DNA of 64,000 nt, taken from the NCBI RefSeq assembly GCF_055900595.2, contig NZ_CM148325.1; one strand, written 5' to 3'. Shown piece after piece: positions 127 through 4,760 of the stretch (position 1 is the stretch's first letter; each line of letters begins with the position of its first letter). Below the pieces are notes generated by a model. The model saw only the letters and a program-made list of their open reading frames with translations. It searched no databases and was not told where the DNA came from. The position numbers and the translations under genes are program-made.

Positions 127-155
127 AAGTCCTCCTGAAAAATCTCCTTCACAAT

Positions 156-821
156 TCATACAAAACCAGCCGCTTTCCGGCGTTCATACTCCTGTTTCAG
201 CAACTCAATTGGCGTTGGTCCCGACGGGCGTTTGGGGGCAGCCAGTTGTCGCCGGACTGGCGGAACGCTGAGGCCCATACCAACATGCTTTGACCATTTC
301 GTCAGTTGCCGTTCTGCAAACCGTTTTAACTCCCCTTCGGTCATCTGGCGTTCAATCCCCTTTGAACGCATCTCGAGGCATATGTGATACAGCACAGGCT
401 GAGACCACGGGTATTTATCGCTTCCGTCGTATCGCCAGGACTCATTGCGCCAGCGTCGGTACTCCTCCATCACAGCCCCCACCGTCAGACCGAATGGATT
501 GGCCCCGCTTTCCGGAATCAGTGCCACAAACTCAGCCAGGTCAGGAGGCCATGTTTCACCCGCCCGGCAGCGGTCCATGCACTGGCGGCAGACCTGCCGG
601 ATTTGCTGCTCAGTCATCGCGCCAATCTGTGCAATCCAGAGCTTCGAAGGTGCGGCCCCGTTCTTCCGGGTCCAGCGGTCCGAATAAACCTCCCCCATGA
701 GTTCCCACAGCTTCCAGGCTGTTTCCGTCGCTGATAAATCCGTTTTCACGTTCCCACTGCTCACGTGCTGCCCGAATTTCCTGAACTGCCCGTGATGCGG
801 TGCCACCTGGTGCTGCTGCAT
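156..821 (-). CDS. Replication protein P-like (DnaB helicase loader family)
   Basis: 221-aa ORF; C-terminal half resembles lambda P (YPW...LY...M motif region); AAGGGGG RBS before ATG at 821; alternative in-frame starts at 698 and 617. Confidence 0.55.
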   Translation of the reverse strand: MQQHQVAPHHGQFRKFGQHVSSGNVKTDLSATETAWKLWELMGEVYSDRWTRKNGAAPSKLWIAQIGAMTEQQIRQVCRQCMDRCRAGETWPPDLAEFVALIPESGANPFGLTVGAVMEEYRRWRNESWRYDGSDKYPWSQPVLYHICLEMRSKGIERQMTEGELKRFAERQLTKWSKHVGMGLSVPPVRRQLAAPKRPSGPTPIELLKQEYERRKAAGFV

Positions 822-1650
822 GGTTCACCCCCTTGCTGACTGGTTTAACCTGCGCCCTGACGTGATTTACGTGACGGGCGAATTTCTGCTCCCACTGAAC
901 CTGTGTGAACACTTTCCCCTCCGCCATCCAGTAATCCCGGAAGGCGGCAAGTTCAGCAGGTGTAAATTCCGGTTCCGGCAAAGCCGCTCCCCACAACGCA
1001 GCCCGCCGTCGAAAATCCAGCGACGGATGCCAGCCATCGGTCATCGGAAATTTTCCGATGGGTTCGCTCAGGCCATCCAGGAATACAGGGGGGGCTGCCT
1101 GTAACGACAAAACTTCCTGCTCACTGATCGGAGCACTCTCGCGTGTGTTATGTGTGGGGTTTAGATCTTTGGGTTCCTTTGGGTTCCGTGATCCGTTTTT
1201 GGGTGTCTTTGATGGAAAATTTGGGTGTTTTTGGTTATTTTCCATGCAGCTAAGAGTTCCGTTTTTGGGTCTGTTTTGTGCTGAAACATAACCATTTTCG
1301 GTACTGTTTTTATTAACAGCACCAATTTTACCCTCCTTTAAAGACTCCCGTTTTTGGGTGTATTCAGGCTCTGCAACGCTTTCTTCTACACCGATAAGTC
1401 GGTACACCACGATTTGCTTTGTTCGGCCTTTTCTCTCACCGGTATCAACAATTAACCCAATCTCCATCAGGTGTCGTAAGCTGTCCTGCACAGTCTTTTT
1501 GTTCAGTTCCGTTACTTCTGCCAGTGCAGATACAGACGGGTATGCACACAAATCGGCACCGCACATATCAGCAAGCCAGGTCAATACTGACTTACTGGAT
1601 GAACTGCCGGTTTTCACCTTTTTAGCCCATCGTAGTGCATCGATGCTCAT
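610..1650 (-). CDS. Replication initiator, O-like: N-terminal HTH, Lys/Asn/Pro-rich linker, C-terminal DnaT-like domain
   Basis: ATG at 1650 with AGGAG RBS; N-terminus MSIDALRWAKKV... HTH-like; C-terminus FTPAELAAFRDYWMAEGK resembles DnaT C-terminal domain; iterons lie inside the linker coding region. Confidence 0.65.
   Translation of the reverse strand: MSIDALRWAKKVKTGSSSSKSVLTWLADMCGADLCAYPSVSALAEVTELNKKTVQDSLRHLMEIGLIVDTGERKGRTKQIVVYRLIGVEESVAEPEYTQKRESLKEGKIGAVNKNSTENGYVSAQNRPKNGTLSCMENNQKHPNFPSKTPKNGSRNPKEPKDLNPTHNTRESAPISEQEVLSLQAAPPVFLDGLSEPIGKFPMTDGWHPSLDFRRRAALWGAALPEPEFTPAELAAFRDYWMAEGKVFTQVQWEQKFARHVNHVRAQVKPVSKGVNHAAAPGGTASRAVQEIRAAREQWERENGFISDGNSLEAVGTHGGGLFGPLDPEERGRTFEALDCTDWRDD
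1160..1365. repeat. Putative phage replication origin iterons (TTTGGGT-core repeats) followed by AT-rich stretch
   Basis: TTTGGGTTCC at 1168-1177 and 1178-1187; CCGTTTTTGGGTGT at 1193-1206 and 1349-1362; CCGTTTTTGGGTCT at 1259-1272; TTTGGGTGTTTTTGG at 1220-1234; AT-rich 1290-1345. Confidence 0.45.
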
Positions 1651-2173
1651 ACGAACTCCTGGCAGACATTTGTTTATCTGCAAAGTAATATTGATATTGC
1701 TGACGATACGCATGCTTGAAAGCAATAGCTTTTTCTATAAGCTCGTCAGTCTCACGTTCCACAACAGATGGATCCGCAAAAAGCAGCCCGGACTCCACCA
1801 CATCGCCATATTCTTTGTTTAACCCGGCGATCATGTACGTAATGCTTTTTCCGTCAGTAATTTCACAATACAACCTGAAATCGCTGATCCGGATAGCCTC
1901 CATAATTGCCGGAATCAGCGCCGTGAATTTTTCCCGCTTATCCCTGGTGTCGATAGCTTTCCAGCGTTCGAATATCTTCACCCGGTTAACGCCCAGCGCC
2001 CGTTGATCAACCTCGCCATCATTAAACGTGACGCGTTGAACATCGATGTTCGGGCGTTCTTTCAGAGCCCAGAATGCTTCCGTGATTAATATCGTCGCCT
2101 GCTCCTGTGTCATTCCTGGTCGGCATACCCAGGCATCCAGAGCCTCACAAACCTGTTCAGGGGTGATTTTCAT
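1622..2173 (-). CDS. YdaT-like protein (Rac prophage ydaT family), downstream of cro-like gene
   Basis: 183-aa ORF; N-terminus MKITPEQVCEALDAW resembles Rac YdaT; overlaps the cro-like stop and the O-like start. Confidence 0.5.
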   Translation of the reverse strand: MKITPEQVCEALDAWVCRPGMTQEQATILITEAFWALKERPNIDVQRVTFNDGEVDQRALGVNRVKIFERWKAIDTRDKREKFTALIPAIMEAIRISDFRLYCEITDGKSITYMIAGLNKEYGDVVESGLLFADPSVVERETDELIEKAIAFKHAYRQQYQYYFADKQMSARSSYEHRCTTMG

Positions 2174-2384
2174 TGTTCAACCGCCCCGCCCGCTTCGTCT
2201 TACGATATTCGTCATAAACTTTGGGGTCGTACTGAAGTTCCCCGCCAGATGCCTCTTGCAGGCGCATCGCGCGACCTTCAGGAACCAGTTCTCCCCATTG
2301 AGAAACAGCAGATGGATCAACACCAGCAGCTTTCGCTACTTTGGCTTTCGTCCCATAAAAATTAATTACGTCTGATTTAAACAT
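2157..2384 (-). CDS. Cro/YdaS-like HTH DNA-binding protein
   Basis: ATG at 2384 with GGAGGGG RBS; small HTH protein (AKVAKAAGVDPSAVSQW) divergent from the repressor gene. Confidence 0.6.
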   Translation of the reverse strand: MFKSDVINFYGTKAKVAKAAGVDPSAVSQWGELVPEGRAMRLQEASGGELQYDPKVYDEYRKTKRAGRLNNENHP

Positions 2385-2461
2385 CACCCCTCCAAAGTTG
2401 AGTTTTCTCAATGGTAATCACTCAAGGAATCTCAAGCCAAGGGTTATTAAGATATCTAAAT
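2385..2461. promoter_or_regulatory. Divergent immunity promoter/operator region (OR-like)
   Basis: 77-bp gap between divergent cro-like and CI-like starts; palindrome TTGAGTTTTCTCAA at 2398-2411 plus repeated CTCAAG half-sites at 2421-2436. Confidence 0.4.
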
Positions 2462-2869
2462 ATGAACGAGAAAACTTTAGGTCAACGAATTAGAGAAAGA
2501 CGCAAACAGGTTGGTTTAAGTCAAAACGATTTAAGCAAAGCTGCTGGCGTATCTGGCTCATCAATTTCACTATGGGAAAGCGACCATACAGCCCCGCGCG
2601 GGCAAAATTTGCATCGCCTGGCTGAGGTATTGCAATGTTCACCAACTTGGATACTGTTTGGTGACGAGGATAAAACACCAGATCCACCAGTTGCACTCAA
2701 CAGCGCCTTAGACTTATCGGAAGATGAGTTGGAGATGTTGCGATTGTATCGCGCACTTCCAAAATCAGAGCAGCAAGCACAAATCAGCGAACTCCGTGCC
2801 CGCGTTGAGAATTTTAATCGCCTATTCACCGAGCTACTAGAAGCTCGCAAACGTAACAAACATCAATAA
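2462..2869 (+). CDS. CI-like phage repressor, XRE-family HTH, no S24 peptidase domain
   Basis: HTH motif GLSQNDLSKAAGVSGSSISLWE; 135 aa; C-terminal helical region only; divergent from cro-like gene. Confidence 0.65.
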   Translation: MNEKTLGQRIRERRKQVGLSQNDLSKAAGVSGSSISLWESDHTAPRGQNLHRLAEVLQCSPTWILFGDEDKTPDPPVALNSALDLSEDELEMLRLYRALPKSEQQAQISELRARVENFNRLFTELLEARKRNKHQ

Positions 2870-2931
2870 CCCCCCTTCACAAATTTTAAAGCCTTACATT
2901 TCAATGTATTGGCTTTATTTTGCATTAAATA

Positions 2932-2982
2932 TTGAGTTTTCTAATCAAAACACTTGACCAATTTTCATGAGAAAACTAAATT
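2932..2982 (+). promoter_or_regulatory. Candidate PL-like promoter with operator (OL-like)
   Basis: TTGAGTTTTCT at 2932-2942 repeats the OR motif; -35 TTGACC 2954-2959, 17-bp spacer, -10 TAAATT 2977-2982; inverted repeat AGTTTTCT (2935-2942) / AGAAAACT (2970-2977). Confidence 0.35.
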
Positions 2983-3063
2983 ACCATCCATCAAGACACC
3001 GCACGGTGTTCTCAGCAAACAGTTCCGCTACCCCGGCGTTAAGGGGAAACAGAGGATTTCTCA

Positions 3064-3420: not shown

Positions 3421-4016
3421 CAGACCCCTCAGAGGATACCACCTCGCCTGACGTGGTTAAAAGCAGGCACACAACACGAAAGCGCACGGCGAGGTAGCTG
3501 GTTCATATATAGCCTGTCGTTAAATTTTCGTCGACCGTGCGCTTCCGGTTGTGGCACTCCGCGAAATGGCGCGGCGGTAAGCATGGCGGGGTTCCCTTCC
3601 CCTTGAGGACACCGGGTTGTCAGGTTGACCATGCGCCTGAGTGACAACCCCGCTGCAACGCCCTCTGTTATCAATTTTCTGGTGACGTTTGGCGGTATCA
3701 GTTTTACTCCGTGACTGCTCTGCCGCCCTTTTTAAAGTGAATTTTGTGATGTGGTGAATGCGGCTCAGCGCACGCGGAACAGTTAAAACCAAAAACAGAG
3801 TTATGGGTGGATTCTCTGTATCCGGCGTTAATTGTTAACTGGTTAACGTCACCTGGAGGCACCTGGCACCGCATCAACAAAGTTCACTTCGGTGATGAAA
3901 GGTAAGAGAAAATGTTGAATGTAGCTATTGAAAACCAGTACGGGTGGAATTATAGTGCACCTGCACCTCATAAAACGGGTGCCGGGCGTGGAAACCCGAA
4001 AGTTACTCGAGCGCAT

Positions 4017-4039
4017 AACCGCGCCGAAGCGGTTTTTTT
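4017..4039 (+). terminator. Candidate rho-independent terminator upstream of the Rha gene
   Basis: AACCGC-GCCGAA-GCGGTT hairpin followed by TTTTT. Confidence 0.4.
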
Positions 4040-4208
4040 ATGCGTAATGCACAGCCACATTCAGATAATGGTGGGGCGTGCAGGGCAGCTGCAAGGCTGG
4101 CCGGGTTCTCGAGTGACCGGTATTTCCACCCCTGTACGTCTCGCCACCCTTATGGTCGTGGAAAGCCTCGGTGGTGAGTTAATTAACTTAACACTTGAGG
4201 ATGCCATC

Positions 4209-4760
4209 ATGGCTACTACCCTTACCCTTTCTCACCCTGACGTAACCATTGAAAATGGTCGCGCTGTCACTACGTCTATTGCGATCGCAGAATTCTTCGG
4301 CAAGCAGCATCACCATGTTGTTCAAAAAATAGAGGCCCTCGAATGTTCTGAACGCTTTTTAACCAGCAACTTTTCGCGGGTTAAATTCGAGCACCGTGGC
4401 AATACCTACAATGCCTACCAAATCACCAAAAACGGCTTCGTTTTCCTGGTGATGGGCTTCACCGGCAAAAAGGCCGCTGCATTCAAGGAAGCCTACATTG
4501 CCGAGTTCGACCGCATGGAGGAAGAACTGCGCCGGAATAACACCACACCCGCTGACAAAATAATCCCGGGTGATGGCCGCACCCTGGTTATCCGCTTCGA
4601 CGAACACGGCTACATCAAATTCACCGAAACCGTTCCTGATGGCGCACTGGTCTGTACTCTGGATACTTTCCGTTTTTATCTGGAAAAGCAGGGATGGACT
4701 CTCATAAACCGGGGCGCAATTAAAAATATGACCGTCGAGCAGTTGCTGAGTATTAAATAG
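4209..4760 (+). CDS. Phage regulatory protein, Rha family (antirepressor-like)
   Basis: N-terminus TTSIAIAEFFGKQHHHVVQKI matches Rha-domain signature; GAGGA RBS before ATG 4209; in-frame ORF is open upstream to 3912, so the start is uncertain. Confidence 0.6.
   Translation: MATTLTLSHPDVTIENGRAVTTSIAIAEFFGKQHHHVVQKIEALECSERFLTSNFSRVKFEHRGNTYNAYQITKNGFVFLVMGFTGKKAAAFKEAYIAEFDRMEEELRRNNTTPADKIIPGDGRTLVIRFDEHGYIKFTETVPDGALVCTLDTFRFYLEKQGWTLINRGAIKNMTVEQLLSIK

Follow-up and report, generated by a model that had tools for sequence, protein, structure and literature searches.

A cluster of short direct repeats is found within the coding sequence of a replication initiator gene in a lambdoid E. coli prophage. 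The repeats probably are iterons that are bound by the initiator protein, and positions 1142–1365 of the window (the whole 64-kb stretch of DNA that was analyzed) would then form the replication origin of the prophage. This reading is drawn from comparison of sequences. The computational tests that were run all support iterons tied to the N-terminal domain of the initiator, in a lambda layout.

The prophage locus

The locus corresponds to the early-right operon of a lambdoid prophage of E. coli. Strain GF4 of this species carries an identical segment (100%), and 907 of 5,426 complete E. coli genomes (about one in six) have it at 95–99% identity, with up to four copies per genome. It displays 95.9% identity to the PPompW prophages of EHEC. 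Carriers of the module include O157:H7, O26 and O111 strains, where it is part of PPompW-type prophages beside or carrying Stx2a phages.

The genes and other features of the locus are listed in Table 1. Cro, YdaT, the initiator and the P-like loader are encoded by one operon in a lambda-like context, and the gene order upstream of the initiator (positions 1622–2869) is kept in PPompW phages and in relatives from Klebsiella, Enterobacter, Salmonella and Yokenella. The gene for a P-type helicase loader is located directly downstream of the initiator gene, as is characteristic of lambda-type origins. The long open reading frame of this loader overlaps the 3′ end of the initiator gene; a short form would begin at position 617. 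The PHROG 109 profile is covered at positions 22–235 by the long open reading frame and only at positions 74–235 by the short one. An Rfam scan of the region gave no family, and a scan of the region for promoter-like and terminator-like sequences gave nothing notable. A second repeat array or a strongly AT-rich site near the replication genes was searched for and none was found.

Table 1. Features of the replication region of the prophage (positions in the window)
Feature	Position	Strand	Basis
Lambda-P-like helicase-loader gene	156–821	-	Pfam PF06992 (E 2e-14); PHROG 109 "P-like helicase loader" (E 4e-59)
Replication initiator gene, O-like, 346 aa	610–1650	-	Open reading frame; N-terminal winged helix, linker and DnaT-like C-terminal domain
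DnaT-like ssDNA-binding domain, aa 197–267	850–1062	-	Pfam PF17948 (E 1.7e-17; match at aa 201–267)
Conserved box AAAGATCTAAACCCCACACATAACACACG, just after the last iteron and ending at the mosaic joint; second candidate unwinding/loading site	1142–1170	-	
Half-iterons I7 and I8, two tandem 10-bp units GGAACCCAAA in two different frames	1168–1187	-	
Iteron I6, exact core, read P-K-N-G	1193–1203	-	Invariant in 52 haplotypes
I5, degenerate copy ACCAAAAACAC (1225–1235) overlapping half-iteron CCCAAATTTTC (1217–1227; third frame, H-P-N)	1217–1235	-	
Iteron I4, exact core, read P-K-N-G	1259–1269	-	Exact match
Least stable 50 bp of the initiator gene; candidate unwinding element	1281–1330	.	Nearest-neighbour stability, 97.9th percentile of the window
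Degenerate iteron I3, ACCGAAAATGG, 3 mismatches, within the AT-rich tract	1292–1302	-	Core match
Relic iteron I2, GGTAAAATTGG, 5 mismatches, within the AT-rich tract	1322–1332	-	Position of EPP-1 iteron 2
Iteron I1, exact core CCCAAAAACGG at 1348–1358, read T-Q-K-R	1346–1364	-	Exact match
N-terminal winged-helix domain (aa 1–86), presumed iteron binder	1393–1650	-	AlphaFold2 model; conserved residues in relatives
YdaT-like gene, upstream control, same early operon	1622–2173	-	Pfam
Cro/DicC-like gene, upstream control, same early operon	2157–2387	-	Pfam
DicA/CI-like repressor gene, divergent, upstream of the initiator	2459–2869	+	Pfam

The probable iteron array

The heptamer TTTGGGT has nine occurrences in the window when both strands are counted, and six of the nine are on the + strand at positions 1168, 1178, 1198, 1220, 1264 and 1353. 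About 0.03 occurrences are expected in these 192 bp versus the six observed (Poisson P ~9e-13). The repeats are a real cluster, far beyond chance. The 64 kb contain exactly three perfect copies of the 11-mer CCGTTTTTGGG, at positions 1193, 1259 and 1348. The sequence-only reading of this DNA described six or more direct repeats of the type TTTGGGT(G/T), some of them in a longer form. Six copies of TTTGGGT are indeed present, but only five of the six fit the (G/T) ending, the copy at position 1264 being TTTGGGTC. The longer form is also present, twice as CCGTTTTTGGGTGT (positions 1193–1206 and 1348–1361) and once as CCGTTTTTGGGTCT (positions 1259–1272).

On the coding strand the repeat unit is ACACCCAAAAACGG and the iteron consensus is (G)AAnnnnCCCAAAAACGG(G)A. 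The array is made up of three perfect copies, two degenerate full copies, three half copies (ACCCAAA only) and one relic, all in a single orientation. An A5 tract between G/C bases is present in each iteron, and dyad symmetry is limited to 2–3 bp. The spacing is irregular (10–42 bp), with most iterons about 2–4 helical turns apart.

Alleles of the array were compared in a within-species sample of 77 IMG/VR alleles, which represent 52 haplotypes. I1 is invariant in the 52 E. coli haplotypes and is found at the same gene position (293) in all enterobacterial relatives. I4 has rare variants at its 3′ end in some E. coli alleles. I3 reads ACCGAAAACGG, which is nearer to the consensus, in 16 of the 52 haplotypes, and I5 in all other E. 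coli alleles is AAAGACACCCAAATTTTCC, in agreement with the extended left arm of the consensus. Two IMG/VR alleles have three GGAACCCAAA units, and this shifts the reading frame.

The array encodes amino acid positions 96–164 of the initiator, between the N-terminal domain and the DnaT-like domain. A lambda-type origin has this arrangement, with oriented repeats in the gene of the initiator itself, past the part that encodes the DNA-binding domain. The amino acid sequence of this region is rich in N (11%), P (10%) and K (9%), and the earlier placement of the repeats in the part of the gene that encodes a Lys/Asn/Pro-rich linker is thus confirmed. The limits of the linker are based on the Pfam and PDB matches and on the model of the N-terminal domain.

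Selection at the DNA level

The core copies are read in three frames. I1 encodes TQKR, I4 and I6 encode PKNG, and the half copies encode HPN or NPK. Synonymous codons were permuted within the gene such that the protein and the gene's own codon counts were kept. The permuted sequences have a mean of 0.28 exact cores versus the three observed (P = 0.0006). When the same permutation was applied to 11 relatives, most displayed a similar excess on at least one of two counts, with Acinetobacter phage AP22 being marginal.

A codon alignment that included intermediate relatives (Klebsiella, Enterobacter, Salmonella, Yokenella and metagenome sequences) shows where the constraint lies. At identical residues, the fraction of identical codons is 0.69–0.90 in the linker (aa 91–172) versus 0.30–0.49 in the N-terminal domain, in 20 of 20 divergent pairs (Fisher p 3e-2 to 1e-10). 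The linker is less conserved as a protein than the N-terminal domain, yet its synonymous identity is about twice as high. This indicates a second constraint that acts at the DNA level, and it is unlike the outcome of recent recombination. Within E. coli, 8 of 62 sites in the cores are variable versus 27 of 144 in the spacers, which is not a significant difference (p = 0.21), and divergence at this level is too low to be informative.

The repeats are selected as DNA, not as codons. The sequence-only reading had itself named codon repetition, without conservation in related prophages, as the explanation that would speak against an origin. This explanation fails on both counts. The repeats go beyond codon repetition in that they use three frames and exceed the synonymous permutations, and of 40 non-redundant relatives, 38 have them conserved at this place and the other two have variant arrays there. 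Programmed frameshifting at CCCAAAA-type slippery runs was also considered and was rejected because copies of the motif fall in each of the three frames and keep to a single strand.

The initiator protein

The initiator belongs to PHROG 1032, "replication initiation protein" (E 1e-88), and consists of an HTH_36-like domain and a DnaT-like domain. It is outside of the Pfam lambda-O family. The AlphaFold2 model of the N-terminal domain (pLDDT 87) displays four helices followed by a two-strand wing. Confidence drops at aa positions 93–95, and the domain ends at about aa positions 86–92. An alignment across 12 relatives shows 20 invariant residues in the domain. The Pfam HTH_36 match at aa positions 36–67 is below the cut-off (E 3.5e-4 in one scan; E 4e-5 in another, with 23.7 bits versus a cut-off of 25), and the relatives score 30–49 bits. 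The window protein has the HTH_36-type winged helix with the conserved DTGERxGxT wing that defines this group, which includes the phage initiators phiV10 gp43, AP22 gp76 and Bcep176 gp11 (PHROG 1032). A Foldseek search of the N-terminal domain against viral models gave as top matches phage initiators annotated as "HTH domain" and one "putative replication protein O". No solved structure matched the N-terminal domain at useful E-values, and a protein search with this domain alone returned short fragments only. The C-terminal domain matches the solved DnaT C-terminal domains 6aep and 4ou6 in the PDB (E ~3e-20).

The similarity to lambda O is slight. The initiator scores 14.8 bits against Pfam PF04492 (Phage_rep_O), where the cut-off is 28.7 (E 0.044); the reference proteins lambda O and P22 gp18 give E-values of 6e-36 and 7e-38 against the same profile. 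BLASTP of the initiator with lambda O gives no alignment. Comparison of the N-terminal domain with the lambda-O profile by hhalign shows a 41% probability over 45 columns, which span the helix-turn-helix and the wing. Homology to lambda O is not claimed, and homology between the two recognition systems is unproven because the Pfam match is below threshold and the hhalign probability is at this level.

The array in the HTH_36-type initiator family

The family was surveyed by IMG/VR scans. A scan that yielded 80 near-identical E. coli alleles was followed by two more with other lead sequences. These two gave 160 loci, of which 40 are non-redundant (<90% identity in the N-terminal domain). A core match is defined as CCCAAAAACGG with up to two mismatches. 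The 300 nt that follow the N-terminal domain contain 149 forward-strand core matches in the 40 loci (12.5 per kb), versus 3–7 matches (0.25–0.7 per kb) in each of four flanking zones of 255–300 nt. Only four reverse-strand matches are found in the same 300 nt. At least two copies are present in 37 of the 40 loci and at least three in 29. The 149 copies are distributed 94/35/20 over the three frames, and at least two frames are used in 34 of 38 loci.

The CCCAAAAACGG-type array directly after the N-terminal domain, a feature that is defined here, is thus present in the window and in 38 of 40 relatives. In the two loci that lack core matches, this position is taken by variant arrays, AAACAGTACCAACATTGGAAC and GAAGCAGGTGCAAAAATGCACC. 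The extended family consensus is ngAAnantCCCAAAAACGGgA, in which AA at positions -6 and -5 is almost invariant. The flanks of the iterons vary between initiator subgroups, and the 11-bp core is common to phages of Escherichia, Klebsiella, Salmonella, Edwardsiella, Vibrio, Acinetobacter and Burkholderia.

It is the N-terminal domain, and not the C-terminal module, with which the array is associated. The array is found with a DnaT-like C-terminus and a P-like loader in the window initiator and in phiV10, with a Phg_2220_C C-terminus and a P-like loader in Edwardsiella phage EPP-1, with an unclassified C-terminus and a DnaB-like helicase in AP22, and with an unclassified C-terminus followed by a DUF6475 protein in Burkholderia phage Bcep176. 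The converse is seen in Rac-SA53. A DnaT-like C-terminal domain followed by a P-like gene is typical of Rac and is also present in the window, and the C-terminal half of Rac-SA53 ydaU together with the P-like gene has about 92% DNA identity to the window. However, the N-terminal domain of Rac-SA53 YdaU is DUF1376 (E 6e-26), a domain that the window protein lacks, and there is no array. DNA homology with Rac stops at about position 1143 of the window, just past the array. This double dissociation and the subgroup-specific flanks point to the N-terminal domain as the putative iteron binder, and it is inferred to be the reader of the array.

Six phage records that were inspected carry no annotation of an origin or array. 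The searchable literature on the motif, ydaU, oriJ and iterons with DnaT or a primosomal protein has no description of the array, and experimental evidence for the origins of the HTH_36-type initiator family was not found there. The putative iteron origin of the HTH_36-type initiators and the wide conservation of a single 11-bp core are apparently undescribed.

The AT-rich tract and candidate unwinding sites

The tract at positions 1290–1345 has a GC content of 33.9% versus 51% for the gene. Windows of 56 bp with a GC content as low or lower make up 2.7% of the 64 kb. The low GC content noted in the earlier reading is thus real, if moderate, but the tract does not follow the repeats as was then described; it lies within the array because the perfect iteron I1 is found beyond it. 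EPP-1 has its iterons 2 and 3, both of them perfect cores, where the window has this tract. In addition, I3 is nearer to the consensus in about a third of the E. coli haplotypes. The tract therefore appears to represent two decayed iterons. As it is modest in composition, internal to the array and formed of decayed iterons, its role in unwinding is uncertain.

The conserved box that follows the last iteron is the other candidate. The Enterobacter, Salmonella and metagenome relatives share the first 22 nt of this box, AAAGATCTAAACCCCACACATA, without a difference. PhiV10, Vibrio H20 and Edno5 have two to three copies of GAACCAGTCATA-like 12-mers at the position of the box. A part of the box, TAAACCCCACACATA, is also found in Rac-SA53 ydaU, which is without iterons, and for this reason the box could be part of the C-terminal module or the trace of a recombination joint.

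In most of the relatives, the 40-mer of lowest stability in the gene comes immediately after the last iteron. The window prophage differs in that its least stable DNA is internal to the array (98th percentile), and it has no GC palindrome after the AT-rich tract. Judged from sequence, the decayed iterons at positions 1281–1330 and the box at positions 1142–1170 are both candidates for the site of DNA opening.

Comparison with known origins

Lambdoid phages are the textbook case of an iteron origin within the initiator gene. Lambda ori has four iterons and an AT-rich region inside gene O, and Stx phages have six-iteron origins (PMC7466680). The annotated lambda iterons (ATCCCTCAAAACGAGGGA and variants) begin just after the Phage_rep_O domain (aa 22–115), and the AT-rich region is next. 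The window shares with lambda the location of the putative origin, which is in linker-coding DNA of the initiator gene, immediately past the part for the N-terminal DNA-binding domain. It also shares oriented repeats with an A-tract center and G/C ends (lambda ATCCCTCAAAACGAGGGA versus window CCCAAAAACGG(G)A), a P-type helicase loader as the next gene, a site in the rightward early operon, and a modular specificity in which the N-terminal half with the iterons is exchangeable against the C-terminal half with P. Unlike lambda O, the window initiator is outside of Pfam Phage_rep_O and its C-terminal half is DnaT-like. The window iterons are shorter, with their slight dyad symmetry and irregular spacing, and the AT-richest DNA is inside the array, whereas in lambda it is at the promoter-distal end. 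The proposal that the locus mirrors lambda therefore stands for the layout, i.e. repeats in the initiator gene after the N-terminal domain and a P-like loader downstream, but not for the protein family. The locus is best described as lambda-like in its working and outside of the lambda-O family.

P22 gene 18 has an annotated rep_origin with ATCGGTAAAAC iterons, an AT-rich stretch and a GC palindrome. Its iterons are inside the initiator gene at the same relative position as in the window, just after the N-terminal domain, and EPP-1, the closest phage relative, has the same order of iterons, AT-rich stretch and GC palindrome. However, gp18 is a member of the lambda-O family (PF04492) with a DnaB-type helicase as partner, and no palindrome is seen in the window.

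Rac oriJ is reported as an active origin (PMC3945230; PMC11014345, the latter citing Potrykus et al. 2000). The Rac ydaU-ydaV genes and the window share the host, the operon layout, the C-terminal half and P-like gene (about 92% DNA identity), and the TAAACCCCACACATA part of the box. The difference is in the N-terminal domain of YdaU, which is DUF1376 and not HTH_36-like, and in the lack of a CCCAAAAACGG array. The origin specificity of Rac must therefore differ.

Iteron plasmids (R6K pi, RK2 TrfA, pPS10 RepA) have direct repeats that are bound by a winged-helix initiator beside an unwinding element. Plasmid iterons are usually intergenic, 17–22 bp in length and regularly spaced. The window repeats differ in being translated as part of the initiator.

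Proposed mechanism and alternative explanations

From these comparisons we infer that initiator binding, bending, unwinding and helicase loading take place at the array. The N-terminal winged helix of the initiator would bind the iterons, which are in one orientation. The A5 tracts and the spacing of about 2–4 helical turns would favour a bent nucleoprotein complex similar to the lambda O-some. Adjacent easily melted DNA would then open, at positions 1281–1330 or 1142–1170, and the C-terminal DnaT-like module together with the downstream P-like loader would recruit host DnaB. Transcription of the cro-ydaT-O-P operon would pass through the site, as in lambda.

An explanation that retains binding of the repeats by the N-terminal domain is that they are mainly regulatory and that strand opening at the origin takes place elsewhere. 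Such a role could be autorepression, a transcriptional roadblock, titration of the initiator or handcuffing of origins. Plasmid iterons also serve in negative control, and the weak and atypically placed AT-rich tract and the want of a confidently assignable unwinding element would fit a role of this type. However, arrays at the same position in lambda and P22 are origins, the vicinity of the replication genes has no other repeat array or strongly AT-rich site, the least stable DNA directly abuts the array in most relatives, and a mini-circle record (see below) carries only this module. A mainly regulatory role is thus unlikely. Much less probable still is that the motif is a site for a conserved host protein such as IHF, Fis or SeqA and not for the initiator. 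The A5 tract flanked by G/C in each repeat and the three GATC sites at positions 1126–1193 would fit such a site, but the motif tracks the phage N-terminal domain and not the host. It is absent from Rac ydaU in the same host species and present with the domain in phages of five genera, and its flanking bases vary between initiator subgroups.

The repeats could also be a by-product of a low-complexity PKNG-type linker peptide, with no function as DNA. K, N and P are abundant in the linker, and the commonest frame, which accounts for 94 of the 149 copies, encodes PKNG or PENG. Against this, 37% of the copies use one of the other two frames, where the encoded peptides are unrelated, synonymous positions are about twice as well conserved as those of the N-terminal domain, the pattern is lost on synonymous permutation, and orientation is nearly absolute (149 versus 4). 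A by-product of this kind is highly improbable. It is also very unlikely that the conserved patches of DNA are homology anchors that result from, or promote, recombination between phage modules at the boundary of the N- and C-terminal halves of the initiator. The mosaic joint with Rac-type genes at about position 1143 does adjoin the array, and the adjacent box TAAACCCCACACATA is common to the iteron-less Rac ydaU. Recombination might explain the single box, but not 3–8 oriented copies of an 11-mer per gene, nor the persistence of the motif in Vibrio, Acinetobacter and Burkholderia phages that have unrelated C-terminal modules; low protein identity with high synonymous identity is also unlike recent exchange.

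Circular records and significance

PLSDB contains an 8,461-bp circular "complete" E. coli plasmid that has no replicon type and has the module as its only replication genes. This plasmid has 96.3% identity to positions 130–3022 of the window and keeps all three exact cores. A second plasmid record of 15.6 kb from the same project is similar. The plasmid records concerned are NZ_CP148379.1 and NZ_CP148543.1. These circular records may be natural lambda-dv-like mini-replicons, or they may be assembly artefacts of an over-replicated prophage segment. As support for an origin they are circumstantial and are given little weight.

It is conceivable, if rather doubtful, that the nearly invariant core CCCAAAAACGG dominates recognition to the extent that replication cross-talk or origin piracy occurs among prophages. 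If this is so, initiators from co-resident but unrelated prophages, or from superinfecting phages, might act on each other's origins by firing, titrating or handcuffing them, and the small circular records that carry only the module would be lambda-dv-like escape replicons.

Prophage replication drives gene dosage after induction. With the iteron origin read as proposed here, a known origin and its recognition code would provide a handle to block or track replication, e.g. by ectopic iterons, recoded linkers or marker-frequency analysis. A simple signature, a CCCAAAAACGG array after an HTH_36-type domain, would make it possible to place origins in many proteobacterial phage genomes. The array also appears to be an example of a linker whose sequence is dictated by DNA sites that are probably read by the protein's own N-terminal domain.

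The initiator gene and its reading frame

A sequence box, AGATCT...AAACCCCACACATA, is found at window positions 1142–1170 of the initiator gene and codes for the amino acids KDLNPTH. It falls precisely on the mosaic joint where the N-terminal half of the initiator meets the C-terminal half. The box is also present in ydaU of the Rac prophage (L002, Rac-SA53), a gene with a different N-terminal domain and no iterons. Three GATC sites are located at window positions 1126, 1164 and 1190.

The 10 bp unit GGAACCCAAA is present in two copies at window positions 1168–1187, the site of half-iterons I7 and I8. Two IMG/VR alleles (L082 and L086) have three copies, and this shifts the initiator reading frame. 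H44, one of the E. coli genome hits, is 10 bp shorter and its annotation shows the initiator split into separate HTH and DnaT-like genes. The initiator gene seems to be broken recurrently by slippage at the GGAACCCAAA repeat.

The P-like helicase-loader gene, which lies downstream, is open from window position 821 and overlaps the 3′ end of the initiator gene by 212 nt (610–821) in another frame. The long form of the open reading frame matches the P-like loader profile at positions 22–235 (201 bits), whereas the short form, which begins at the ATG at 617, covers only positions 74–235 (177 bits). In the relatives from Klebsiella and Salmonella, gene callers predict the long version that overlaps the initiator gene, and in others they predict short forms. 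PHROG 15931 matches both the initiator and the P-like protein, as though these were a single fusion.

Repeats within and beyond the iterons

Window position 1229, within iteron I5 (1217–1235), is an A in the window and in strain GF4 but a G in all other E. coli alleles examined. With the A, the left arm of I5 reads AAAAACACCCAAA instead of the consensus AAAGACACCCAAA. I5 is also flanked on both sides by a perfect 9 bp inverted repeat, ATGGAAAAT / ATTTTCCAT, with 16 nt between the arms (window 1212–1245). No such inverted repeat is seen at the equivalent site of the relatives from Klebsiella, Enterobacter, Salmonella and Yokenella.

In phiV10 (L007), Vibrio H20 (L006), Edno5 (L008) and Bcep176 (L004), a second and distinct set of short tandem repeats immediately follows the iterons. 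Among the four these are AACCAGTCATAT (three copies), GAACCAGTCATA-like units and GAACAGTAG (four copies), and they may represent unwinding elements of the origins of these phages.

Rfam matches and plasmid records

Three stretches of the window match Rfam RNA families with scores above the gathering score. The isrK and C4 matches are immediately upstream of, or inside the 5′ part of, a 282 aa open reading frame (3912–4760).

Rfam matches in the window
RNA	Window position	Strand	Rfam score (bits)
DicF sRNA	3677–3728	+	76.7
isrK Hfq-binding RNA	3963–4039	+	67.2
C4 antisense RNA	4064–4151	+	73.8

Two circular “complete plasmid” records from a single project, NZ_CP148379.1 (L256, 8,461 bp) and NZ_CP148543.1 (L258, 15,643 bp), are made up of prophage early-region DNA. 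Neither has a typed replicon, and their only replication genes are those of this repressor/Cro/YdaT/initiator/P module. These records may be lambda-dv-like mini-replicons or else assembly artefacts.
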